Below, piece by piece: positions 1 through 42,234 of a stretch of 42,234 nt of DNA. Under the pieces are notes generated by a model. The model worked only from the letters and a program-made list of their open reading frames with translations, was not told the DNA's origin and did not search any database. Origin of the DNA: Klebsiella phage vB_KmiS-Kmi2C; the sequence record OP495736.1. The stretch is one strand, 5' to 3'. A program made the translations under genes and the position numbers. The number at the start of each line of letters is the position of its first letter. Position 1 is the stretch's first letter.

Positions 1-77
1 CGCTGGATGGAATAGGCATTGCCCCGGAACGATACGGAATTAGAGAACCGCTGTTACTTGAATTTAAAACTAACGGC
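1..77. repeat. Terminal direct repeat. It is identical to 42158..42234, consistent with an assembly overlap from a circular or circularly permuted genome.
   Basis: Exact 77-nt match between the window start and the window end. The reading frame of the ORF leaving the 3' end is continuous with frame 3 at the 5' end. Confidence 0.9.
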
Positions 78-533
78 ACTGGTTCAGGATATAGCAAATT
101 AATTAATGGCGGAATTCAGCTAGGGAAACCCGTTCATTTTTCCCAAATGTCAACGTATGGCACTAACCCGGCCTACGGATTTAAACACGGATTGTATTTA
201 AACACAAATAAAAATGATGACGATATTCATGTTGAAATTGTCGCATTAAGTGAAGATTTAGGCAAACAAAACATAGTTAAAGCTGAAAAGATTATATTGT
301 CAGAAACTCCACCGCCGAGACTTTCAGACAATCCGACTTTTCACAAATGCCAGTATTGCGCGGCTAAAGACGTTTGCCATACCGGGGCATTAGTTAATCG
401 TAATTGTCGTAGTTGCAAGTTTGCTAAACCTGTAGAAAATGCGGAATTCTTTTGCACTATTCATAATGGTATTATTCCGCGTGATTTTGTAATAACAACT
501 TGTGATAGTTATTCGAGCATTAACGATGATTAA
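3..533 (+). CDS. Cas4/RecB-like exonuclease, C-terminal part. It carries a QhxxY motif and a C-terminal Cys cluster of the Fe-S type.
   Basis: Frame 3 is open from nt 3 and is the same frame as ORF 147..533. Motifs seen: QMSTYG, then CQYCAAKDVCH...CRSCKF, a four-Cys cluster typical of Cas4-like nucleases. Confidence 0.65.
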   Translation: MDGIGIAPERYGIREPLLLEFKTNGTGSGYSKLINGGIQLGKPVHFSQMSTYGTNPAYGFKHGLYLNTNKNDDDIHVEIVALSEDLGKQNIVKAEKIILSETPPPRLSDNPTFHKCQYCAAKDVCHTGALVNRNCRSCKFAKPVENAEFFCTIHNGIIPRDFVITTCDSYSSINDD

Positions 534-2172
534 ACTACGTTATTATCAGGAAGATGCGATTAATGCTATTTTTAAATATTTCGGTTCGAATAAAGGAAAT
601 CCGATTTTAGCGCTTCCTACAGGAACCGGAAAAAGCATAGTTATCGCCGAATTTATTCGGCGAGTTTTGCAAACGTGGCCCGGTCAAAGAATTATTATGC
701 TTACCCACGTTAAAGAGCTAATCGCACAAAACGCCGCTAAACTGCAATCCGTTTGGCCTAATGCGCCGATGGGAATTTATAGCGCTGGCCTGAACGGTCG
801 AGATATGATGATGCCTATAGTTTTTGGCGGTGTTCAATCAGTATCTAAAGCAATTGAAAGGGAGTTAAAAGAACCAAACAATTATATTCCAGACCATAGA
901 AAACATTTCGGTCATAGAGATTTAATTATTATTGACGAATGCCATTTAGTTAGCGATTCTGAAAATACGCAATATCAATACATAATTAGCGAACTTAAAA
1001 AGATTAACCCTTACATAAAAGTAATTGGGCTAAGCGCTACGCCTTATCGATTAAAACACGGTATGCTAACCGAAGGCGATAGTATTTTTACCGATATTCC
1101 TTACGACATTACAGGGGTAGAATCTTTTAACAGGCTAATCGCCGAAGGATATTTATCGCCACTTTTCCCAAGACCGACTAACGCCGTTATAAATACAAAT
1201 GGCGTTGGCATGACTGGCGGTGATTTTAACAATAAACAAATGAGCGCTGAAGTCGATAAAGTAATTTATCAGGCTGTAAGTGAAATGGTTCAATTGGGAC
1301 AAGACCTTAAAGCGTGGTTAGTGTTTTCGCAAGGCGTAGAAAATGCCGAAAAGATTGCTTCTCTTTTAAATAGTTTTGGCGTAGACGCTTGCGCTACTCA
1401 TTCCAAATTAGGGGCTAAACAAAATGACGAAATAATAGCCGCGTACAAACACGGCGAATTAAGAGCATTGGTTAATGCAAACAAATTAACAACAGGCTTT
1501 GACCATCCACCAACCGATTTAATCGGAGTTCTACGCGCTACCATGTCGCCGGGGCTATGGGTTCAAATGCTAGGACGTGGAACAAGGCCAAGTCCCGAAA
1601 CTGGTAAAACGCATTGCTTAGTTTTGGATTTTGCCGGAAATACCAAACGACTCGGCCCGATTAATGATCCGGTTAAACCACGTAGACCGGGTAAAGGCGA
1701 ACCGGGCGACGCTATCGTTAAACTTTGCAAAGTATGCAACACGTATAACCACGGTTCAGCTAGATTTTGCGTTTGTTGTGGAAATGAATTCACATTTGAA
1801 AATAAGATATTTAAAACCGCATCGACCGAACAACTAATAGCTAGCGATTTGCCAGTAGTCGAATCTTTCAAAGTCGATAAAGTTTTATATAATTTACATG
1901 AAAAGAGAAGTAAAAGCGGGGCGCTTATGTCGCCGCCTTCTATGCGAGTAACTTATTTTTGTGGGTTAAGACGATTTGATGAATGGGTATGTTTTGAACA
2001 TAAAGGCTTCCCGCTTCATAAAGCCCACGAATGGTGGAAACAACGACACATTAGCGAACCGCCTATTTTTACATGGCAAGCTTTGCAAGTTGTTTCTGAA
2101 TTAAGAGCGCCTGAAACTATTAAAGTTTGGGTAAATAAAGACAATCCCGAAGTTATGTCGGCGGAGTGGTAA
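526..2172 (+). CDS. SF2 DEAD/DEAH-box DNA helicase with a C-terminal Cys4 zinc ribbon
   Basis: Walker A LPTGTGKS and DEAH-type box IIIDECH are present. Zinc-ribbon motif CKVCN...CVCCGNEF. The likely start is ATG 526 (MIKLRYYQ), where ATGATTAA overlaps the nuclease stop codon. Confidence 0.85.
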   Translation: MIKLRYYQEDAINAIFKYFGSNKGNPILALPTGTGKSIVIAEFIRRVLQTWPGQRIIMLTHVKELIAQNAAKLQSVWPNAPMGIYSAGLNGRDMMMPIVFGGVQSVSKAIERELKEPNNYIPDHRKHFGHRDLIIIDECHLVSDSENTQYQYIISELKKINPYIKVIGLSATPYRLKHGMLTEGDSIFTDIPYDITGVESFNRLIAEGYLSPLFPRPTNAVINTNGVGMTGGDFNNKQMSAEVDKVIYQAVSEMVQLGQDLKAWLVFSQGVENAEKIASLLNSFGVDACATHSKLGAKQNDEIIAAYKHGELRALVNANKLTTGFDHPPTDLIGVLRATMSPGLWVQMLGRGTRPSPETGKTHCLVLDFAGNTKRLGPINDPVKPRRPGKGEPGDAIVKLCKVCNTYNHGSARFCVCCGNEFTFENKIFKTASTEQLIASDLPVVESFKVDKVLYNLHEKRSKSGALMSPPSMRVTYFCGLRRFDEWVCFEHKGFPLHKAHEWWKQRHISEPPIFTWQALQVVSELRAPETIKVWVNKDNPEVMSAEW

Positions 2173-2174
2173 AA

Positions 2175-3296
2175 ATGAACGAATACGAAATCGATAATAA
2201 AGGTATTGATGATTTATTTGATGACGCGCCCAAGAAAAAAGGCCGCACTAAAAAAATCGTTGCCGTTAATCCCGCACAATCATTTTTAGATGCGGTTACA
2301 TTTGTTTCTAACGCTCAAAAGAAAACAGGTGAGCCAAATCATACCCATTGCGCTATTTCTGGCGGTTATGTTTGTGCCTCAAATGGCGAATTAACTATTG
2401 CCGCTAAAGTAGATGAAAATCTAACTATTGCCCCAAATACGTTTAAGTTAATTGCAGCACTTAAACAAGTTGTTAATGATGTTGCCATAACTAAATTATC
2501 AGAAACTAGTTTAGCTATCACTTCTGGTGATTTTAAAGCCGTTATACCTTGCTATGAAACTTCAGAAATATTTGGTATGTCCCCGCCAGATGAACCGCGA
2601 GCAACAGTTACTAATGATATTGTCGCATCCCTTAATGATGTTATGGTATTGGCTAACGATACAGCTTCCGAACCTTTATATGCTGGAATTCTAATTCAGA
2701 AAAATACTATAGTAGCTACAAATGGCGCTATAATTTTTGAGTCGTGGCATGGTATTGATTTACCTCCGGGAATGTTAATACCAAAATCAGCCGCTAAAGC
2801 TGTAGTTAAATCTAAAAAGAATTTAACTAAATTGGGTTTTTCCGAATCATCTTTAACATTTTGGTTTGATGACGATTCATTTATTAAAACTCAATTGTAT
2901 AAATTTAATTACCCACAATATGAGCAAGTTTTAACGACAACTAAAGAATATGAAGAAATTCCAGATATGTTTTTTAATGCGCTTAAAACTATTGCCCCTT
3001 TTGTGGAAGGAAACAAAGTAGTTTTTAAAAATGGTATGATTGTTACAGACTATCGAGAAGAAAACGCATCAACTTACAAAATTGATTCGCTTCCTGAAGG
3101 TGTGACTTTTAACCATAAATTTTTAATGCTACTTAAACCAGTTGCAACTAATTTTACTTTTGACGAAAATCCCGCTAAACTATACTTTTACGGCCCTAGA
3201 ACTAGGGGCGCAATTATGGGTATGAGTAACGGCGAGTTAACAAAGCATAAAGCCGAATCTCAAAACATAGAAATCGATGATGATATCCCATTTTAA
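2175..3296 (+). CDS. DNA polymerase sliding clamp, DnaN/beta-clamp-like. It has an N-terminal charged extension and a C-terminal SSB-type acidic tip DDDIPF.
   Basis: RBS ggag sits 8 nt before ATG 2175. The length, 373 aa, is close to beta clamp length (366 aa). Beta-clamp-like motifs: VATNGAI (cf. VATDGHRLA) and FNYPQYEQVL (cf. FPDYRRVLP). The last residues are EIDDDIPF. Confidence 0.55.
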   Translation: MNEYEIDNKGIDDLFDDAPKKKGRTKKIVAVNPAQSFLDAVTFVSNAQKKTGEPNHTHCAISGGYVCASNGELTIAAKVDENLTIAPNTFKLIAALKQVVNDVAITKLSETSLAITSGDFKAVIPCYETSEIFGMSPPDEPRATVTNDIVASLNDVMVLANDTASEPLYAGILIQKNTIVATNGAIIFESWHGIDLPPGMLIPKSAAKAVVKSKKNLTKLGFSESSLTFWFDDDSFIKTQLYKFNYPQYEQVLTTTKEYEEIPDMFFNALKTIAPFVEGNKVVFKNGMIVTDYREENASTYKIDSLPEGVTFNHKFLMLLKPVATNFTFDENPAKLYFYGPRTRGAIMGMSNGELTKHKAESQNIEIDDDIPF

Positions 3297-3309: not shown

Positions 3310-5271
3310 ATGCTTGACAAAGACGGATTTATAGCCATAGGTAAGCAACAACCAACCGAACTAGCTAAACTGGTTAGACGCGAAGCAAAGCCTATTGTTC
3401 GTTTTTCAGACGAAGAACTAATGTCGCTTACTCCGGGAAGCGTTTTAGTTTTTGATATAGAGTGCTATATGAATTTTTTCTATATAGCGTTTAAATGCCC
3501 GTTATCTGGAAAAGTAGTCGATTTCGAATTGTCGGCGCGTTCACAAATTAACGTTATGAAACTACAGTTTATATTGTGGCGCTTCCTTATTGTGGGCTTT
3601 AACTCTAATGCTTACGATATGATGATGATTAGATTATGTTTAGAAGGTTTGCAACCTGTAGAATTAAAAGGATGGTCTAACCAAATAATTAATAGTGACA
3701 TGCGCGATTGGCAAACCGAACAACTTATAAATAAAGAATTCGGTAAAAAGCCATTTAACATAAACCACATCGATTTAATTGAGGTTTGCCCATTACAAGC
3801 TTCGCTAAAACTTTATGGCGGTCGATTGCATTCTACACGTATGCAAGATTTACCGTTTGATCATATGTCCGAATTAGAAGACAATGAGAAAGACGAAGTT
3901 ATTTATTATTGTGCTAACGATTTAGACGTAACTATTTTACTATTTGTAAATCTTAAAGACCAATTAGAGTTACGTTGTAGTTTATCGGAAGAACACGGCA
4001 TAGACTTACGTTCTAAATCTGACGCGCAAATCGCTGAAGCCGTAATTAAAAAAGAAGTAGAACGAATTACAGGATTTGCACCGCAAAAACCAAAGATAGA
4101 ATACGGCAAGAAATTTAAATTTATACCGCCTGACCATTTGCATTTTCAAACTGATTATATGAAGGAAAAATTTAATCAAATTTTAAATATGGAATTTGAA
4201 ATAAATGATAAAGGTACTGTAGTTTTAGAAGATTTAAGCGGATTTGACATTACTATAGGTAAGACTGTTTATCGAATGGGAAAAGGCGGTTTGCACAGTA
4301 AAGAAAAAATAGCATCGTATCGAGCTAATGAAAATATGCGTATTGTAGACCGTGATGTAGAATCATATTACCCACGAATGATTTTAAACTCCGGTTTATA
4401 TCCAGAAACTATGGGGCGCGTATTTTTAGATGTATTTGAAGTTATTGTAGACCGTCGATTAGCCGCTAAACATTCTGGCGACAAAAAAACTGCCGATAGT
4501 TTAAAAATCACCATTAACGGAACGTTTGGAAAACTAGGTTCTAAATATTCCGCAATGTATGCGCCTAATCTGTTAATTCAGGTAACTGTAGGCGGTCAGC
4601 TAAACCTTTTAATGCTTATCGAAATGTTAGAACTATACGGAATAACCGTAGTTAGTGCTAACACTGACGGTATTGTTAGCTTAGTTGAAAAGCATCAAGA
4701 AGAAGCTTTCTTAAATATAATTACAGGATGGGAACATTTAACTAAACTTAAAACAGAAGAAACCGAATATAAGGCGTTATTTAGTCGCGATGTTAACAAT
4801 TATATCGCAGTAAAACATGATAATTCGTGCAAGCTAAAAGGGACGTATTCTAACCCGTGGGCAGATGAGAAAATGGCAATTTTCCGTTTTCATAAAAACC
4901 CCGTTCACACAATTTGTATTGAGGCTGTAACCAAATTAATAACCGAAAATATACCGATTGAAAACACGATAGTAAATTGCAAAGATATAACTAAATTTAT
5001 TATTGTGCGTAACGTTAAGGGCGGCGGCGAAAAAAACGGTATTTATTTAGGTAAGGCTGTAAGGTGGTACTATGGCGCTGGTGAACGTGGCGCAATAAAC
5101 TATGTGGCAAGCGGTAATAAAGTGGCAACTAGCGAAGGCGCTATTCCTCTAATGGATTTGCCAAATGAATTACCTAAAGATTTAGATTACGAAAGATATA
5201 TTAATATAGCTAGTGAAATGCTATATGATATTGGATATTATAGACGCCCTGAGCAAATTATGTTTTTCTAA
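3310..5271 (+). CDS. Family B DNA polymerase, compact at 653 aa, with an N-terminal 3'-5' exonuclease domain
   Basis: Exo I FDIE. Motif A DVESYYPR (DxxSLYPS-like). Motif B KITINGTFG (KxxxNSxYG-like). Motif C ANTDG (DTDS-like). RBS aaagg before ATG 3310. The C terminus is ...EQIMFF. Confidence 0.85.
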   Translation: MLDKDGFIAIGKQQPTELAKLVRREAKPIVRFSDEELMSLTPGSVLVFDIECYMNFFYIAFKCPLSGKVVDFELSARSQINVMKLQFILWRFLIVGFNSNAYDMMMIRLCLEGLQPVELKGWSNQIINSDMRDWQTEQLINKEFGKKPFNINHIDLIEVCPLQASLKLYGGRLHSTRMQDLPFDHMSELEDNEKDEVIYYCANDLDVTILLFVNLKDQLELRCSLSEEHGIDLRSKSDAQIAEAVIKKEVERITGFAPQKPKIEYGKKFKFIPPDHLHFQTDYMKEKFNQILNMEFEINDKGTVVLEDLSGFDITIGKTVYRMGKGGLHSKEKIASYRANENMRIVDRDVESYYPRMILNSGLYPETMGRVFLDVFEVIVDRRLAAKHSGDKKTADSLKITINGTFGKLGSKYSAMYAPNLLIQVTVGGQLNLLMLIEMLELYGITVVSANTDGIVSLVEKHQEEAFLNIITGWEHLTKLKTEETEYKALFSRDVNNYIAVKHDNSCKLKGTYSNPWADEKMAIFRFHKNPVHTICIEAVTKLITENIPIENTIVNCKDITKFIIVRNVKGGGEKNGIYLGKAVRWYYGAGERGAINYVASGNKVATSEGAIPLMDLPNELPKDLDYERYINIASEMLYDIGYYRRPEQIMFF

Positions 5272-32779: not shown

Positions 32780-33424
32780 TCAATTATTAAGCGCCGGAAC
32801 AACGATTTTAAACATTCTTCCGCCTGATTCGTATTTTTTAGAACTTACGTCTTTAGCTAATTCGATTAGATAGCCTTTTTCAACAGCCAAATCAACCAGT
32901 CTTTGAATCTCTTTAGTAGCGCCATTAACAGCATTACGAATAGATTTTTTACGTGCTAATTTACGATGCAAATAAGTATAAGTAATCACATTGTCAGGTT
33001 TAGTTTTATTAGATAGAGCACAATACGACATTGCCGTAGAAACTTCAGATTCCAAATAAACTTTTACAGTTTCTTTAAATTCTTCTTCGTTTTCTTCCAT
33101 GCTATCAGAATTGCCCACATTGTTAGCCAGCAAACGGAATAACCTGTAAAAAGATTCAACTTTAGAACCTTTAGGAAGTTGCGAAAACTCTAACCAATTT
33201 TGCGCTTTATGTTCCACCAGAACTACAGGTAAATCAAAAGCCGTTTGTGAATCGTTTAGAATCTGTTTTAGCAATTCATATCTATAGCTATCAATCCTTA
33301 TAAGAATTGATTTTTCGTTGTTAGATTCGTCTTTGAATCGTTCAGCAATCCGATTAACTAACAAAACATGTTCTTTATATTGGCAAATAATCGGCGAAGG
33401 TTCGTAAATAGTTTCGTCGTACAT
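32780..33424 (-). CDS. Early protein whose C-terminal domain is paralogous to the C-terminus of the primase-helicase (putative DNA-binding domain)
   Basis: VITYTYLHRKLARKK..NGATKEIQRLVDLAVEKGYLIELAKD compared with IIPYAYLHKKLARNV..TGATNAIKKALQTMMDRGDLLEISKP. It is the first gene after the AT-rich promoter region. Confidence 0.55.
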   Translation of the reverse strand: MYDETIYEPSPIICQYKEHVLLVNRIAERFKDESNNEKSILIRIDSYRYELLKQILNDSQTAFDLPVVLVEHKAQNWLEFSQLPKGSKVESFYRLFRLLANNVGNSDSMEENEEEFKETVKVYLESEVSTAMSYCALSNKTKPDNVITYTYLHRKLARKKSIRNAVNGATKEIQRLVDLAVEKGYLIELAKDVSSKKYESGGRMFKIVVPALNN

Positions 33425-33995: not shown

Positions 33996-35267
33996 TTACA
34001 TGCTACGATGAACGAAATCAATAAGCCTGTTAAATGCGCTAATTTTATTGTTGTATTCTCTTGTACTGCCAGCTATTTTTCTTATTTCATTATTGACTAA
34101 ATCATAACGCTGATAATGTGAATGTCCGAATCCTGATTTCGATTTACCACAATAAGCGATAGCCAATTGTGATAACCAGATTGGAAAGTGATATTCTTCA
34201 CCATTATCTTTAACCGAAATGCTTCCATCATCTTTAAGCTCAAACTGATAGTTTACATGTTCAGGTTCGGCCCTGATTCCACGGCCTATAAGTTGAACGT
34301 AAAGTGGTTCATTATCAATTTTTGAAGACGCTCGTTTTAATTGCTTTTCGAATTCAGCAAGAATGTTTCTATGCTTAATATTTTGAAAAGCCATTCGTTT
34401 CAATTCCGCTTGCATAGCTTCAGAATTGAGAAACTTGTCAATCTCCCCGGCATATTGCGGTTCAGTCGCTGGCGTAATGTGGGCATCGTTGCTAAATCGG
34501 TTTAGTTCCGGCGATACTGCGTTATCTCCGGTTGGCTGGTGTAACCCTACAGCCTCACCGCAACGAGGGCTAATATAGACGCTGGCGGAAGTTGTGATTA
34601 CGTCTCTTACGCTGTAAACGCTAAAGCCTTCGGACATAACTTTGATAAAAGAAACGCCTTCATTAACGGCTAGTTCATCGGCTTTAACTAAAGCTTTTGT
34701 TAATTCTGAAGCTCGATTAATTCTTGCTATTATTTTGTCAGTTGCATTTTTAATTACTTGTTGCGCCGTTTGGTTTTGCCATTCAGCCTTAGTAACGAAT
34801 GGGCCTTGCTTTCTGGTTTTAAGCCATACGCTAAGAAATTCCGCGCTAATCATTGGAATACCTAACGACAATGCCCGGTTGATTTTAAGCGCGTTAGGCG
34901 CATTGCCCACAATAAGAAAATCGCAATCTTTCGACACGACCCCTTTACGGGAACCCGATTTATAATCTTTAGCTAAAAGTTCACATAGTTCGTAACGGTC
35001 ATAAATCGTTCCGGTTAATGCATAGCTTTTACCAGTTAAAAAGTTTTCATCTTCGATTAAACAATCGTTAATGATAAGAAAATGATTATCACCTAAATTT
35101 TGTTCGCAGAAATTTAAAAAACGATCTACGATGTTGCCCGGTTTTACTTCTTCAGGTTCGACAAGCATAACCGTTTTTTCATCTTCTTGTATTACACGAA
35201 TAACGCGTAAAGGGTATTTGCCCGGTAAAGGACATTTGCCATTAATCAGTCTGGTTTCAATTGTCAT
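33996..35267 (-). CDS. BRCT-domain-containing early protein
   Basis: LTGKSYALTGTI...VVSKDCDFLIVGNAPNALKINRALSLGIPMISAEFL fits a BRCT fold of the type at the LigA C-terminus. No ligase KxDG motif. ATG 35267 sits 9 nt after GAGG; the track start is a TTG codon. Confidence 0.5.
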   Translation of the reverse strand: MTIETRLINGKCPLPGKYPLRVIRVIQEDEKTVMLVEPEEVKPGNIVDRFLNFCEQNLGDNHFLIINDCLIEDENFLTGKSYALTGTIYDRYELCELLAKDYKSGSRKGVVSKDCDFLIVGNAPNALKINRALSLGIPMISAEFLSVWLKTRKQGPFVTKAEWQNQTAQQVIKNATDKIIARINRASELTKALVKADELAVNEGVSFIKVMSEGFSVYSVRDVITTSASVYISPRCGEAVGLHQPTGDNAVSPELNRFSNDAHITPATEPQYAGEIDKFLNSEAMQAELKRMAFQNIKHRNILAEFEKQLKRASSKIDNEPLYVQLIGRGIRAEPEHVNYQFELKDDGSISVKDNGEEYHFPIWLSQLAIAYCGKSKSGFGHSHYQRYDLVNNEIRKIAGSTREYNNKISAFNRLIDFVHRSM

Positions 35268-35469
35268 GATTATTAACCTCAATTTGAATAAAAATATCTG
35301 ATTTCTCAGGGTTTGTTAAATCGATTGAACTTAATTCAATTAAAACGTTATTTTGTTCGCTTAACTGATTATAAAGTTCTTCGATTCTGCTAACAGGTAG
35401 CAATAAAAGATAAGTTGGATTTTTACATATCTGATAAAAAGGCATTATTAAAGAGGCCATTTTATTCAT
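35257..35469 (-). CDS. Hypothetical protein (70 aa)
   Basis: ORF overlapping the next gene's start by 11 nt. Confidence 0.35.
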   Translation of the reverse strand: MNKMASLIMPFYQICKNPTYLLLLPVSRIEELYNQLSEQNNVLIELSSIDLTNPEKSDIFIQIEVNNHDN

Positions 35470-36089: not shown

Positions 36090-38402
36090 TCATATCCCAA
36101 ACGCTTTTGGGTTTGATATTGAAAACGCTCTTTGTGCGGTTCCGTATTCGGTTACTAGCTTCGGCTTTGATATCTCTAACAAATCCCCCCTATCCATCAT
36201 AGTCTGAAGCGCTTTCTTAATGGCATTCGTTGCCCCGGTTCGGTCTTTCTTAAAGTGAACGTTTCGCGCTAACTTCTTATGAAGGTATGCGTAAGGAATG
36301 ATGCGTTCACTATGCAATCTGGCGTTAGCTTCCCCGGCGTAAGGTTTGACTTCTGACCAGCTAGCAGTAACGTAGGTTTTAACGATTTCGCAAAGCTTAG
36401 AAATTTGTTGCGTTTCTTCGTTGTTAACGCCTACTTCGCCCATATCAAAGCGACGCATAATGTTATTAGCATCGGCTAAAACAAGGTTAATCGCCCATGT
36501 TGCCATATCGGAATTAATAACCGGGTCATAAGGGTTACATCCAACGGCTATCAATGCCGAAAGCTTAAGCGCTTTAATGTGGGCGCGGTTCCATAGTTCC
36601 GAGTTAACTTGATTGTTACTAGCCCTCATATTGTCATCGACATACAAGTTAAACTGTTTAAGCATTTGCGTAGCGTTTTCGTCTAACTGAACTTCTATCG
36701 CCTTATGTTGGTTGTTCAGGTTAAGGCAGTTAGCGCAAACTTGAGCGGTTTTATCAATCAAATCAAATTCAGGCCTTACATGTAAATGATTTTCGTTTAA
36801 ATACGGGCGTTTTCCATAGTATTCAATAATGGTAAAACGTGGTAACAATCCTTCGGTAATCATTCCTTCGTGTAAACCTTCGTAAAATCTTTCGGGCGTC
36901 GATTCACCTAACAACGTTACAGCCGGGGCTAAAATGTTATCTGTATTCTTTTCTCTATCGCTATAGATACTTTGCTTTAACATTTTTCCGTTACCGGATT
37001 TGTTATAGATATCGAGCAACATTCTACGCAAACCTAACATATGCGGCGAAGCGTTCACACTTCCCATTTGTTGTAAATGCAAACCAAATTCGCCAATCGT
37101 ACTAACAAAGCTTTTAGATGATTTCGACAAATATTTAATTAATGCTTGCGGCGAATTTATTTCTCCCGGCCCTATAAATTCCATCGCCGAAGGAACCATT
37201 TTAACAACTTCTCGCATTATTAAATCGATACCACTTGAAATAGCTTCTTTACCCGTACCAGTACCAGCGAGCAATAAAACATATTGGTTAAGGCCAGTAC
37301 CGGAAATGTTGTAAGCCCTGCCCACAATACCAGCAAACAAACCTATTGCCCCGGCTAAAGCAATTTCGGGAACCGGGCGAGGTGCGGCAGCGTAAATAAA
37401 CTGCGCTATTTCTCCTACCAGACCAGGCGGAACGGTAAACGCCGAGGTTACAGGCGTCGCAACTTCCGTAACATTTTGCGGGATAGCTTCAGCGATTTGC
37501 GATTGTGGAATATCGGCATTTTGCATCCTTTTTTCGATTATAGCGTTTATCTGGTCGCGTAGCCCTTCGATATCAACAGGCGGCAACATACGGTCAAAAC
37601 ATTTATCAAGCGCATATTTTAATCGATATTCGGCGCGGGATTTTTCGCGCTGGCCTAGCATAGAAGCTAAAAATAATTTTTTTACTTGTGCCCGGTTTTC
37701 ACTATAGAAAGCGATAATATCAATTAAAGCTAAATCGGCTTCAGATTGCGAAGGATAGTATTTTTGCCAGTTTCCATTGTCGTATAATTCTATGAATTTT
37801 TCGGCGTTTGCAGCATTACGCGCCATAGACATAACTTCTTCGTCAGTTCGTTTAGCTTTGTCTAATCCAGCGTAGTATGCTGTAGCGTTTGGCCCTTTGC
37901 CCATTTGAAGCCACAACGCATTGAATAGCGAATCGTAATCTTTAATGCTTTCATTACGGAAAATGTTTCCCGTCATCGTCATAAAACGAAGATTCGAATA
38001 TACTTCAATCGACGAACGTTTACGGCCTGAAGGAATGGAACCCTTAATAATGATATGTAATCCGGTGCCACTCGGCGAGCGTTCAGCATAAGAAACGAAT
38101 TCGTTATAGATTCGTAATTGTCTATCTGCGTTACCCTGATCGCCTTTAGTATCGTCTAAGTCAATAAATCCGTAAGGGTCATTTTCAGTTAAAACGAATC
38201 CTAATCCTGAATACATGCCAGAATTAAGAGCGCCTAAAGCGTCGTGATAGCTTCCCCATGTAGAAGAATCGTTAACCTTAGCCATTCTTCCATTTATAGG
38301 GGAGTAAGGAATCTTAGTCGGTTTGTCGCCTTCGGATTCTTCGAAGCGCCAAACAACCCATTGGTTATAAGCCCGCATTTCTACGGGAATGTTATCGAAC
38401 AT
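36090..38402 (-). CDS. Bifunctional primase-polymerase / SF3 (D5-like) helicase with a C-terminal putative DNA-binding domain
   Basis: The N-terminal prim-pol region WVVWRFEESEGDKPTKIPYSP...GLGFVLTENDPYGFIDLDD resembles that of P4-alpha/D5-like primases. Walker A LLLAGTGTGKE. The C-terminal 60 aa are shared with ORF 32780..33424. Confidence 0.75.
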   Translation of the reverse strand: MFDNIPVEMRAYNQWVVWRFEESEGDKPTKIPYSPINGRMAKVNDSSTWGSYHDALGALNSGMYSGLGFVLTENDPYGFIDLDDTKGDQGNADRQLRIYNEFVSYAERSPSGTGLHIIIKGSIPSGRKRSSIEVYSNLRFMTMTGNIFRNESIKDYDSLFNALWLQMGKGPNATAYYAGLDKAKRTDEEVMSMARNAANAEKFIELYDNGNWQKYYPSQSEADLALIDIIAFYSENRAQVKKLFLASMLGQREKSRAEYRLKYALDKCFDRMLPPVDIEGLRDQINAIIEKRMQNADIPQSQIAEAIPQNVTEVATPVTSAFTVPPGLVGEIAQFIYAAAPRPVPEIALAGAIGLFAGIVGRAYNISGTGLNQYVLLLAGTGTGKEAISSGIDLIMREVVKMVPSAMEFIGPGEINSPQALIKYLSKSSKSFVSTIGEFGLHLQQMGSVNASPHMLGLRRMLLDIYNKSGNGKMLKQSIYSDREKNTDNILAPAVTLLGESTPERFYEGLHEGMITEGLLPRFTIIEYYGKRPYLNENHLHVRPEFDLIDKTAQVCANCLNLNNQHKAIEVQLDENATQMLKQFNLYVDDNMRASNNQVNSELWNRAHIKALKLSALIAVGCNPYDPVINSDMATWAINLVLADANNIMRRFDMGEVGVNNEETQQISKLCEIVKTYVTASWSEVKPYAGEANARLHSERIIPYAYLHKKLARNVHFKKDRTGATNAIKKALQTMMDRGDLLEISKPKLVTEYGTAQRAFSISNPKAFGI

Positions 38403-39706: not shown

Positions 39707-40414
39707 ATGAATGTTCGCGATTTGCAACCATCCGGTAATCTTGCTAAGAAATTCGGCGTTAAGTCGATTGTTTACGGCAAGGCCGGAATTGGTAAAACGC
39801 CGATTGTTCAAACTGCACCGCGCCCGGTATTACTTGCTGCTGAACCGGGTTTGTTATCCATGAAAGGGACTAATATTCCGACATGGGAATGTTACGATAT
39901 TAATAATCCGACTGATACAAAAAAATCATATAACAGGGTTATTGAATTTTTTGATTGGTTTTTCCGTTCTAATGAGTCGAAAAATTTTGATACTCTAGCT
40001 ATTGATAGTTTGTCGCAAATTTGCGAAATTATTTTACGTTACGAATTAGGGCGTAATAAAGATGGGCGAAAAGCTTACGGCGAATTATCCCGCTTTATTA
40101 TGGAAAGTATTTGCGAACCTTTATACTATATGCCTAATAAGCATTTGTATTTAATTTGCAAACAATCTGTAAATGACGAAAACGGGCAAGCTGTCAAATG
40201 TCCGTATTTTCCGGGGCAAGATTTAAACGTTAAAATTCCGCATTTATTTGATGAAATTTTGCATTTAGATGAATATAATATTCCCGGTGTAGGTAAACAA
40301 GTCGCTTTTCGTTGTAAGCCGAGTTTTGATACTAAAGCTCGCGATAGAAGCGGTATGTTAAACGAGTTCGAACCGCCAAACCTCGGCAATATTTTTGCCA
40401 AATGTTCACAATAG
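39707..40414 (+). CDS. Sak4-like RecA-fold recombination ATPase (AAA_24 type)
   Basis: Walker A YGKAGIGKT near the N-terminus. Walker B TLAIDSLS. About 235 aa. Adjacent to an SSB-like gene. Confidence 0.65.
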   Translation: MNVRDLQPSGNLAKKFGVKSIVYGKAGIGKTPIVQTAPRPVLLAAEPGLLSMKGTNIPTWECYDINNPTDTKKSYNRVIEFFDWFFRSNESKNFDTLAIDSLSQICEIILRYELGRNKDGRKAYGELSRFIMESICEPLYYMPNKHLYLICKQSVNDENGQAVKCPYFPGQDLNVKIPHLFDEILHLDEYNIPGVGKQVAFRCKPSFDTKARDRSGMLNEFEPPNLGNIFAKCSQ

Positions 40415-40443: not shown

Positions 40444-41178
40444 ATGGCCCAATTAATCAGCCCATTCAACCCGAATAACTACAACCCGGAACAAAGCGCT
40501 GGGCAAATGCCTATCGGTAAACATCCGGTAGTTATTGAAAGTTCTGAAGTAAAAGCAAATAAAGCTAATGACGGCGGGTATTTGCAATTTAATTTAAAAA
40601 TTATTGACGGCCCTAATGCTGGTATTACTGGCCCTTATCGCCTTAATCTTTATCACGCTGACCAAACTACTTGTGAAATTGCTAATCGCCAGCTTTCGGC
40701 AGTTTGCCACGTTGTTAATGTTTTCGGTGATTTGACAACTACCGATCCGCTTCACAATATTCCTTTTATTGTCGAAGTAGCTCCACAGAAAAAAGACCCG
40801 CAATATACGCAAGTTGTTAAAGTATTCGATATTAACGGCAACGAACCGGGCAAAGCGCCAGCAGGTCAGGCACAAACCCAACAAGCGCAACAGCCCACAC
40901 AAGGCGGCGCTGGTCAACAGTGGGGCGGTCAACAGCAACAACCAGCTAACAACGGCGGTTGGGGCCAGCCTCCGGCAAACAATGGTCATCAACAGCCGCA
41001 AGGCCAGCCGGAACAACAGCCTAACGGCGGTCAGCAATGGGGAGCGCCAGCAGGGGGCCAGCAACCAGCATGGGGGCAGGGTAGCCAGCAAACGCAACAG
41101 CCGCAAGGCGGCGCTAATAACTGGCAGCAACAACCAGCTAACGGCAATGCTGGCGGGGTTCCGTGGGGCCAGAAGTAA
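40444..41178 (+). CDS. SSB-like protein. Its long Gln/Gly/Pro-rich C-terminal tail carries WG repeats and lacks an acidic tip.
   Basis: N-terminal domain of about 140 aa, then QQWGGQ..GGWGQP..QQWGAP..PAWGQG..NNWQQQ..VPWGQK. In composition the tail resembles the E. coli SSB linker GGWGQPQQPQGG. Confidence 0.5.
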   Translation: MAQLISPFNPNNYNPEQSAGQMPIGKHPVVIESSEVKANKANDGGYLQFNLKIIDGPNAGITGPYRLNLYHADQTTCEIANRQLSAVCHVVNVFGDLTTTDPLHNIPFIVEVAPQKKDPQYTQVVKVFDINGNEPGKAPAGQAQTQQAQQPTQGGAGQQWGGQQQQPANNGGWGQPPANNGHQQPQGQPEQQPNGGQQWGAPAGGQQPAWGQGSQQTQQPQGGANNWQQQPANGNAGGVPWGQK

Positions 41179-41729: not shown

Positions 41730-42234
41730 ATCTGATATCGACGAATATTGCGAAAAGAAATTTGATGATGGTTTTCGCTGGCATTTAGGCGCGTCGTTAA
41801 TTGGTCACGAATGCAAACGATATTTGTTTTATGTGTTTCGCTGGTGCTTCAAAGAAAAATTCGATGGGAGAATGCAACGCCTGTTTAATCGTGGGCATCG
41901 CGAAGAAGAACGTTTTATCGAATGGTTAGAAGGTATTGGCTTTACTGTTTACGCTGACGATTGGTCTAATTGGTCATTATATTGGCATAGTGAAAGCGAT
42001 TCCTATTTTGTTGATAAAAAGGATATTGATTTACATGCTGGCGGGTATGATTTGGTAGATGTTACCGACAACGAAATCCATAGAAAAATAGCTAAAGCTA
42101 TGGGGGTTAAGTTTAAACAATATCGTATAAGCGAAGTTAACGGGCATTTCGGCGGGTCGCTGGATGGAATAGGCATTGCCCCGGAACGATACGGAATTAG
42201 AGAACCGCTGTTACTTGAATTTAAAACTAACGGC
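41644..42234 (+). CDS. Cas4/RecB-like PD-(D/E)xK exonuclease, N-terminal part. The gene continues at 3..533 across the contig junction. The full protein is about 348 aa.
   Basis: Open frame with no stop to the window end: MSENEEKK...GGSLDGIG...LLEFKTNG. The RecB-type motifs D and ExK are present. The ATG at 41644 lies downstream of an aagg motif. It overlaps the 3' end of the upstream ORF by 86 nt. Confidence 0.6.
   Translation, partial: MSENEEKKNTNEIDLNTKGVMSQLSKQIKSDIDEYCEKKFDDGFRWHLGASLIGHECKRYLFYVFRWCFKEKFDGRMQRLFNRGHREEERFIEWLEGIGFTVYADDWSNWSLYWHSESDSYFVDKKDIDLHAGGYDLVDVTDNEIHRKIAKAMGVKFKQYRISEVNGHFGGSLDGIGIAPERYGIREPLLLEFKTNG
42158..42234. repeat. Second copy of the 77-nt terminal direct repeat
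   Basis: Identical to 1..77. Confidence 0.9.

Follow-up and report, generated by a model that had tools for sequence, protein, structure and literature searches.

Here we examine a 42,234-nucleotide stretch of DNA from Klebsiella phage vB_KmiS-Kmi2C (sequence record OP495736.1; hereafter the window, at its full length) and the family-B DNA polymerase (PolB) encoded on its plus strand at 3310..5271, next to a DnaN-like sliding clamp gene. We found that the polymerase closes with a candidate beta-clamp-binding pentapeptide, QIMFF, and that terminal peptides of this kind are, among its relatives, nearly confined to phages that encode a clamp. The tail probably tethers the polymerase to the phage clamp, and a replisome built from PolB and a beta clamp, not one of the PCNA or gp45 type, is the best reading and a well-supported one. 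The initial annotation of this DNA, made from its letters alone, had proposed the same arrangement, and the comparison of related phages speaks for it, as the motif predicts the adjacent clamp gene (59:1 versus 2:13). [quoted passage not shown]

The polymerase ends in a conserved, disordered tail

Translation of 3310..5271 gives the 653-residue product ending in RRPEQIMFF that had first been read from the sequence (C-terminus ...DIGYYRRPEQIMFF, followed by the stop). In its AlphaFold2 (AF2) model, the last helix, in the thumb (residues 627-640), is followed by a disordered tail, I641-F653 (IGYYRRPEQIMFF; 5230..5268, +), in which a basic linker precedes the terminal motif QIMFF (5254..5268, +). 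The tail is modelled as coil, and its predicted local distance difference test (pLDDT) score drops from 79 to 51. QIMFF fits the Qxx[LF]F class of pentapeptides and stands at the free C-terminus of this disordered segment.

Across the clade, the length of the tail is steady at 11-13 residues. A [LFMI]F pair followed by zero to two residues closes 116 of 177 unique tails in the polymerase family, compared to a background of 2.5% for the other open reading frames (ORFs) of at least 150 residues in the same loci. The 116 unique tails yield the logo [KR]-P-[KE]-[TQ]-[LA]-[SKG]-[LF]-F-COOH, with L in 82 and F in 29 of them at the penultimate position, a consensus near the bacterial clamp-binding motif QL[SD]LF. 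The likeness to E. coli Pol II that had been pointed out at the outset is borne out by this logo and by the C-terminus of Pol II itself (...TGQLGLF), through which that polymerase reportedly binds the beta clamp (Dalrymple et al. 2001). Some tails of the family, such as LFDF and LFEGLF, resemble the C-terminal peptide of RB69 gp43. Loss or variability of the ending in orthologues had been named in advance as the observation that would speak against a function, and the nearest relatives (78-96% identity) instead keep EQI[MNS]FF: they end in EQIMFF, EQINFF or EQISFF and differ only at the x position, which is free in QL[SD]LF. From its conservation, the C-terminal pentapeptide is predicted to act as a clamp-binding motif.

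Terminal motifs track the clamp gene

We assembled a comparative set of 80 viral contigs with relatives of this polymerase, taking flanks of up to 10 kb if the contig reached that far, and scored each locus for the polymerase termini and for a clamp homologue; co-variation with the termini was scored for the clamp gene only, and the 75 loci with adequate flanks were informative. Wherever the polymerase has the C-terminal motif and the flank is adequate, a clamp gene lies directly upstream (37 of 37 loci, 32 with the C-terminal motif alone and five with both motifs). One group of polymerases without such a tail is still clamp-associated and shows, at the N-terminus, the conserved motif M-x-R-x-D-x-x-G-[FL]-F-W-[ED]-D, exemplified by Nonagvirus SE1 (MRKDAIGFFWTDLP; L085:3342-3400) and Burkholderia phage BcepGomr (MRFDSDGLFWQELP; L084:3354-3410).

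When both ends are considered, polymerases with any terminal motif have a clamp gene in 59 loci and none in one, and those without a motif have it in two and lack it in 13 (Fisher p = 1e-11), a pattern that holds in 42 clusters at 60% identity. One of the two motif-less, clamp-bearing exceptions has the near-variant SLLWDEP. Polymerases with neither terminal peptide begin at the ExoI motif, stop at the last helix and have no clamp within 10 kb. A hydrophobic terminal peptide that switches ends and is lost together with the clamp would be hard to explain except as a clamp tether. Small ORFs between clamp and polymerase in phages without the tail (SE1 gp86, BcepGomr gp27) were considered as adaptors and set aside, as they lack a clamp-type ending.

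The polymerase in the window also has an N-terminal peptide, MLDKDGFIAIGK (3310..3345, +), which corresponds in position to the DxxG[FL]FW motif and is conserved in the clade. It falls within residues 1-20, where pLDDT is low in the AF2 model, and belongs to an N-terminal extension of about 45 residues that is missing in clamp-less relatives. This peptide may form a second contact with the clamp dimer.

A predicted three-domain beta clamp upstream of the polymerase

The clamp gene lies at 2175..3296 (+) and belongs to PHROG 947. GTG 2166 is the start given by the ORF lister (376 residues), but the ATG at 2175 is the most likely one, because the corresponding methionine (M4 of the listed ORF) does not vary in the alignment and close homologues have, as does the product from this ATG, 373 residues. 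An AF2 model of this product (pLDDT 87.7, predicted TM score 0.82) matched only bacterial DnaN in a Foldseek search of the PDB (E value around 1e-18, TM score 0.70-0.73, 356-370 aligned columns) over essentially all of its three-domain length, in agreement with the DnaN-like call of the initial annotation; bacterial DnaN has three tandem clamp domains in a chain of about 366 residues. Searches for Pfam (DNA_pol3_beta 1-3) and NCBIfam (dnaN) families gave no match to the clamp, and hhalign against E. coli DnaN reached a probability of 14.5%, so that the relationship is remote by sequence; this alignment is collinear with the structural match. The modelled fold points to a genuine three-domain beta-type clamp, not one of the PCNA or gp45 type.

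By the same weak alignment, residues of the E. coli peptide-binding cleft have equivalents conserved in 55 homologues of the phage clamp: T172 corresponds to T185 (54 of 55), G174 to G187 and P242 to P250 (51 of 55). Further equivalents in the 55 clamps are L177 to L/I190, Y244 to Y252, V247 to V/L255, N320 to N316, Y323 to F/Y319 and M362 to M351. When the tail type of the polymerase (LF, FF or N-terminal) is compared with the cleft residues of the paired clamp, differences are clade-wide and inseparable from phylogeny.

The isoelectric point (pI) of the phage clamp is 5.16, compared to 5.25 for E. coli beta, and an acidic pI is a published criterion for ring-forming clamps that need a loader (PMC3201878). 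The phage clamp is thus presumably a closed ring. We found no AAA+ or Walker-A candidate for a clamp loader in the window, and a closed ring with no loader encoded would be loaded by the host gamma/tau complex. At its other end, the clamp has a disordered N-terminal extension (2175..2270, +; pLDDT below 55 for residues 1-30) with an acidic GIDDLFDD followed by a basic KKKGRTKK. Homologues retain the basic stretch, often with a (V/I)PxP peptide, and the clamps of tail-less polymerase lineages have no such extension.

A divergent family-B polymerase with intact catalytic motifs

The polymerase has its 3'-5' exonuclease and polymerase motifs intact. ExoI (FDIE; family pattern DxE), ExoII (GFNSNAYD, with NSNAYD; family pattern Nx2-3[FY]D) and ExoIII (YCANDLD; family pattern Yx3D) are all present, with D49, E51, D103, Y200 and D204 invariant in 120 relatives, and the polymerase motifs follow in family-B order (DxxSLYPS, KxxxNSxYG, DTDS): A (DVESYYP; 4354..4374, +; catalytic Asp349), B (KITINGTFG) and C (NTDG; 4660..4671, +). 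Opposite motif C, E. coli Pol II has DTDS in the alignment; the phage motif has Asn for the first Asp and Gly for Ser, as throughout the subgroup. In the RB69 and phi29 polymerases, metal is bound by the carboxylates of two residues that the phage enzyme retains, the Asp of motif A and the second Asp in motif C. The initial annotation had called motif C degenerate; NTDG is in fact invariant in 120 of 120 relatives and is a published subgroup signature (PMC3201878). A degenerate or inactive polymerase is rejected, since none of the catalytic and exonuclease motifs, NTDG included, varies among these 120 relatives.

Several lines of evidence place 3310..5271 as a divergent member of family B. The PDB entries that match its AF2 model (pLDDT 90.6) at E values of 1e-16 to 1e-13 are family-B polymerases, among them archaeal PolB, Pol alpha and Pol II of E. 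coli, with a global TM score of only about 0.45; in a PDB search Pol II ranks second, behind 1s5j. With hhalign, a profile built from 40 relatives matches E. coli Pol II across motifs A-C at 94% probability, and PHROG 1252 ('DNA polymerase') matches over the full length (E = 6e-198). The best NCBIfam matches are Pol II models, and these are weak (22-27 bits against cut-offs of at least 570). Pfam gave no match at E values up to 0.1, including to DNA_pol_B (PF00136) and the protein-primed PolB family; precomputed PF00136 matches exist in a few relatives.

The hallmarks of the 'PolIIphages' subgroup of RNA-primed PolBs of Kazlauskas and Venclovas (2011, PMC3201878) are an NTDG active site and a similarity to E. 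coli Pol II above that to other PolBs, and the polymerase in the window belongs there: it has NTDG, its best similarity, weak as it is, is to E. coli Pol II, and a clamp resembling the Pol III beta subunit is encoded alongside. It does not belong to the E. coli Pol II clade proper, the PolII-like clade G1 defined by a 'GWN' ExoII (Kazlauskas et al. 2020, PMC7544198), as its ExoII reads GFN and F97 is invariant in the alignment. Its length had been singled out as small, but 653 residues is ordinary for a family that ranges from 618 to 706; the enzyme is compact because the usual N-terminal domain is missing, ExoI beginning at residue 48.

An SSB-type tip at the end of the clamp

The clamp ends in ...NIEIDDDIPF, and its last six residues, DDDIPF (3276..3293, +), are those of E. 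coli SSB. In the AF2 model they sit on a disordered tail of about 20 residues (pLDDT 46-59) that exits the core at the rim of the peptide cleft, from the strand corresponding to the E. coli C-terminus. DDIPF closes 82 of the 120 nearest clamp homologues, and [DEN][IVL][PQ]F closes 90 of them. In our loci 18 clamps carry the tip, all paired with a polymerase that has the C-terminal tail.

The tip was seen 27 times among 11,055 ORFs of at least 50 residues, where a rough expectation by chance from residue frequencies is about 0.1. Outside clamps it takes the form [DE][DEN][IVLM]PF-COOH and occurs in related phages whose clamp is without it: on the orthologous superfamily 2 (SF2) helicase in three loci (L037:1-1764, L042:17483-19246, L059:2170-3900), on a primase (L077:1-1353), on four small PHROG 23504 proteins (L006:8649-8942, L034:5582-5872, L035:2427-2624, L040:880-1116), of which two are encoded directly upstream of the clamp, and on a 107-residue protein without a family match (L066:2306-2626). 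The SSB-type tip looks like a portable tag within these replication modules, and its disordered tail, its conservation and its excess over chance suggest a functional element. A rule of one SSB tip per genome was tried and rejected, as the Acinetobacter phage Ab_SZ3 has none.

Among isolated phages, the clamp tip appears to track the host. The clamp of RcHartney, a Rhodobacter phage, ends in DDEIPF, that of KL1 (Burkholderia) in DDDIPF, that of HHBS29_1 (Pseudomonas) in EDDIPF and that of the window phage, whose host is probably Klebsiella, in DDDIPF; the SSBs of R. sphaeroides and E. coli end in LDDEIPF and FDDDIPF, respectively. The DDEIPF of Rhodobacter phages matches the alphaproteobacterial SSB ending, and the DDDIPF of KL1 and of the clamp in the window that of E. 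coli.

SSB uses its DDDIPF tip to bind chi, DnaG and numerous further proteins (PMC5872125, PMC11436948), its binding by chi being described in PMC11436948, and the Sak4 protein of phage HK620 needs the NDYPPF tail of HK620 SSB (PMC5928155). By its identity with the SSB C-terminus (SSB-Ct), the clamp tip would be a mimic or transplant of that element on a carrier that is not an OB-fold SSB. Most plausibly it draws in a host protein that interacts with SSB, and chi of the clamp loader, the most logical choice for a clamp without a loader of its own, is the leading candidate; alternatively, it may serve the phage Sak4-like protein or the polymerase itself, or occupy the clamp's own cleft in cis.

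Proposed mechanism and alternatives

In the mechanism that we favour, the two terminal aromatics of the polymerase tail would enter the phage clamp's hydrophobic cleft, which lies between domains II and III, and so tether the enzyme to primed DNA for processive synthesis, comparable to QLGLF of Pol II and the C-terminal peptide of RB69 gp43. The conserved N-terminal DxxGF[IV] peptide may fill a second pocket of a clamp dimer. The ring would be loaded by the host gamma/tau complex, and the DDDIPF tip, held close to the binding cleft, would bring in a host SSB-interacting protein, chi foremost. We infer physical binding of tail and clamp from motif and co-occurrence and regard it as probable. 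A more far-reaching version is possible, but we are doubtful of it: phages would graft the host SSB tag onto their own replisome proteins (the clamp here; a helicase, a primase and a small protein elsewhere) and so plug a PolB replisome into the host SSB interactome, with DDDIPF drawing the chi-psi arm of the host loader to load this very divergent clamp and the polymerase holding the clamp dimer through both QIMFF and DGFI.

Several observations weigh against parts of this account. Q at position -4 is found in 31 of the 116 tails only, T being as common there, and the tail has F, not L, at -1. The counts for motif and clamp co-occurrence are phylogenetically non-independent, and the mapping of the cleft depends on the weak hhalign alignment, at 14.5% probability. 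There are 22 clamp-associated polymerases without any C-terminal tail, so that the tail is not the sole way to use the clamp. Both Ab_SZ3, whose whole genome was scanned, and the Xanthomonas phage Pfeifenkraut have clamp and tail with an SSB-type tip nowhere, and the clamps of SE1 and BcepGomr are likewise without it; since there are clamps and tails without the tip, the tip is accessory and dispensable for clamp use.

The nearness of the tail motif to bacterial QL[SD]LF and to Pol II QLGLF would also suit binding to host DnaN, instead of or besides the phage clamp, which would then serve another purpose, and cross-binding between host and phage is conceivable given that the phage clamp and E. 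coli beta are similar at cleft-equivalent residues. DnaN is present in every host, yet the motif is nearly confined to phages that encode a clamp of their own (59:1 versus 2:13), and the polymerase gene directly follows that of the clamp within one operon, which makes this reading unlikely. We hold it to be similarly improbable that the tail docks another replisome partner (the SF2 helicase, the primase-helicase, SSB or Sak4) with the clamp correlation reflecting shared ancestry of the module. The lineage structure of the counts favours such a reading, as does the precedent of T7 and T4, where C-terminal tails of polymerases and SSBs mediate contacts with helicase or SSB. The association persists, however, in 42 groups at 60% identity and at two motif positions, N- and C-terminal, and [LF]-F at a free C-terminus after a basic linker is the chemistry of known clamp ligands.

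The polymerase is short (653 residues) and unrecognised by Pfam, which would suit an incidental hydrophobic ending without specific function on an enzyme that is intrinsically processive, like compact protein-primed PolBs. We give this very little credence: the tail is strongly conserved against the 2.5% background, the best structural matches are RNA/DNA-primed PolBs, the protein-primed PolB family of Pfam gives no match, and a primase of the archaeo-eukaryotic primase (AEP) type is encoded as well as the clamp. A protein-primed polymerase of the phi29/PRD1 type, which would have a DNA_pol_B_2 signature with TPR1/TPR2 insertions and a terminal protein and need neither primase nor clamp, was rejected on the last three of these grounds, and replication is not protein-primed, since the AEP primase gives primers.

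Relation to known systems

The pairing of such polymerases with clamps is not new, although the initial annotation had implied that it was unusual. Polymerases of the PolIIphages subgroup with Pol III beta homologues were described in Pseudomonas phage 73 and Burkholderia phage BcepGomr in 2011 (Kazlauskas and Venclovas, NAR 2011, PMC3201878), a study that concluded no definite clamp-binding motif for minor PolB subgroups. The BcepGomr polymerase is a homologue of the one in the window, and BcepGomr and relatives of phage 73 are direct homologues. Related phages (Septimatrevirus, KL1, Rhodobacter phages) already have a 'replicative clamp', 'DNA polymerase III beta subunit' or 'processivity factor' annotated beside the polymerase, and in vB_KmiS-Kmi2C itself genes 1-4 are listed as a Cas4-domain exonuclease, a DNA helicase, a 'DNA polymerase processivity factor' and a DNA polymerase (bioRxiv 10.1101/2023.01.12.523727). 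The tail finding thus mostly confirms an expected arrangement that has been known since 2011 and is routinely annotated; an SSB tip on a clamp is unusual, and the side observations are more original than the pairing. The literature searched, which was not exhaustive, described neither the tail motif of these polymerases nor its N-terminal counterpart, nor a clamp that bears an SSB tip.

Like E. coli Pol II, the polymerase in the window is of family B, carries Qxx[LF]F at its extreme C-terminus and has a three-domain beta clamp as its presumed partner. Unlike Pol II, a host repair polymerase, it is replicative, comes with a clamp of its own, has a GFN ExoII and is without the N-terminal domain. 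With gp43 and gp45 of T4 and RB69 it shares a viral family-B polymerase, a short hydrophobic C-terminal tail and a virus-encoded clamp; gp45, however, is a two-domain, trimeric, PCNA-like clamp with the gp44/62 loader, whereas the clamp in the window is of the three-domain DnaN type and no loader is encoded. The clamp tip resembles bacterial SSB-Ct, a hub for chi, DnaG, PriA and RecO, in that an identical hexapeptide ends a disordered acidic tail. It differs from SSB-Ct and from the HK620 SSB tail (NDYPPF) in standing on a clamp or, among related phages, on a helicase, primase or small protein, while the phage's own SSB is without it.

More than 1,000 phage records have this polymerase and about 300 have the clamp; candidates for therapy against Pseudomonas, Klebsiella, Acinetobacter and Stenotrophomonas are among them. 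The comparison offers a testable account of how a family-B polymerase is coupled to a bacterial-type clamp in this large, common phage group. It predicts that the tether lies in the polymerase's last five residues, that other lineages moved the tether to the N-terminus and that clamp-less lineages have neither. Mimicry of the SSB tip would suggest borrowing of host factors by a phage without clamp loader, ligase or primer-removal enzyme and, if true, would represent a new way of hijacking the host replisome that might also help to determine host range.

Genomic context of the replication module

We regard the polymerase as the replicative, proofreading enzyme of a siphophage of about 42 kb in a Septimatrevirus-like group; the phage collection searched contained no record with more than 60% protein identity to the window. 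Its gene belongs to a rightward replication operon that crosses the ends of the window and comprises a Sak4-like protein, SSB, a Cas4-type exonuclease, an SF2 helicase, the clamp and the polymerase. The SF2 (ResIII/DEAD) DNA helicase (502..2172, +; Pfam and PHROG) shares this operon with clamp and polymerase. The Cas4-type exonuclease runs over the junction of the window ends, and ORF 147..533 is only its C-terminal part. The Sak4-like annealing ATPase (39707..40414, +) is a possible phage-encoded receptor for an SSB-type tip.

The phage SSB (DUF669/PHROG 6015; 40444..41178, +) ends in GGVPWGQK, without an acidic tip, and has a long Q/G-rich linker; at about 110 residues rich in Q, G and P, this linker resembles that of E. 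coli SSB. Its gene adjoins the Sak4-like gene, an arrangement in which the HK620 SSB has a functional tip.

On the minus strand, 36090..38402 encodes the AEP-type primase(-polymerase), which is fused to a helicase-like C-terminal part (PHROG 3022, E = 6e-252) and has an NrS-1-like HBD. The 428-residue ORF at 33996..35282 (-) has as its sole similarity a weak BRCT-like stretch at residues ~77-150 that resembles the C-terminus of an NAD-dependent ligase. Considered as a loader or ligase, it is not an obvious candidate and has no Walker A motif.

The first and last 77 bases of the window (1..77 and 42158..42234) are identical, which looks like the k-mer overlap left by an assembler on a circular contig, whose true length would then be 42,157 bp. 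The 214-residue product of 32780..33424 (-) is similar to AEP-family primases over their C-terminal ~100 residues (PHROG 3022, positions 687-781; also PHROG 29311), and by this similarity may be a stand-alone copy of the primase's C-terminal domain.

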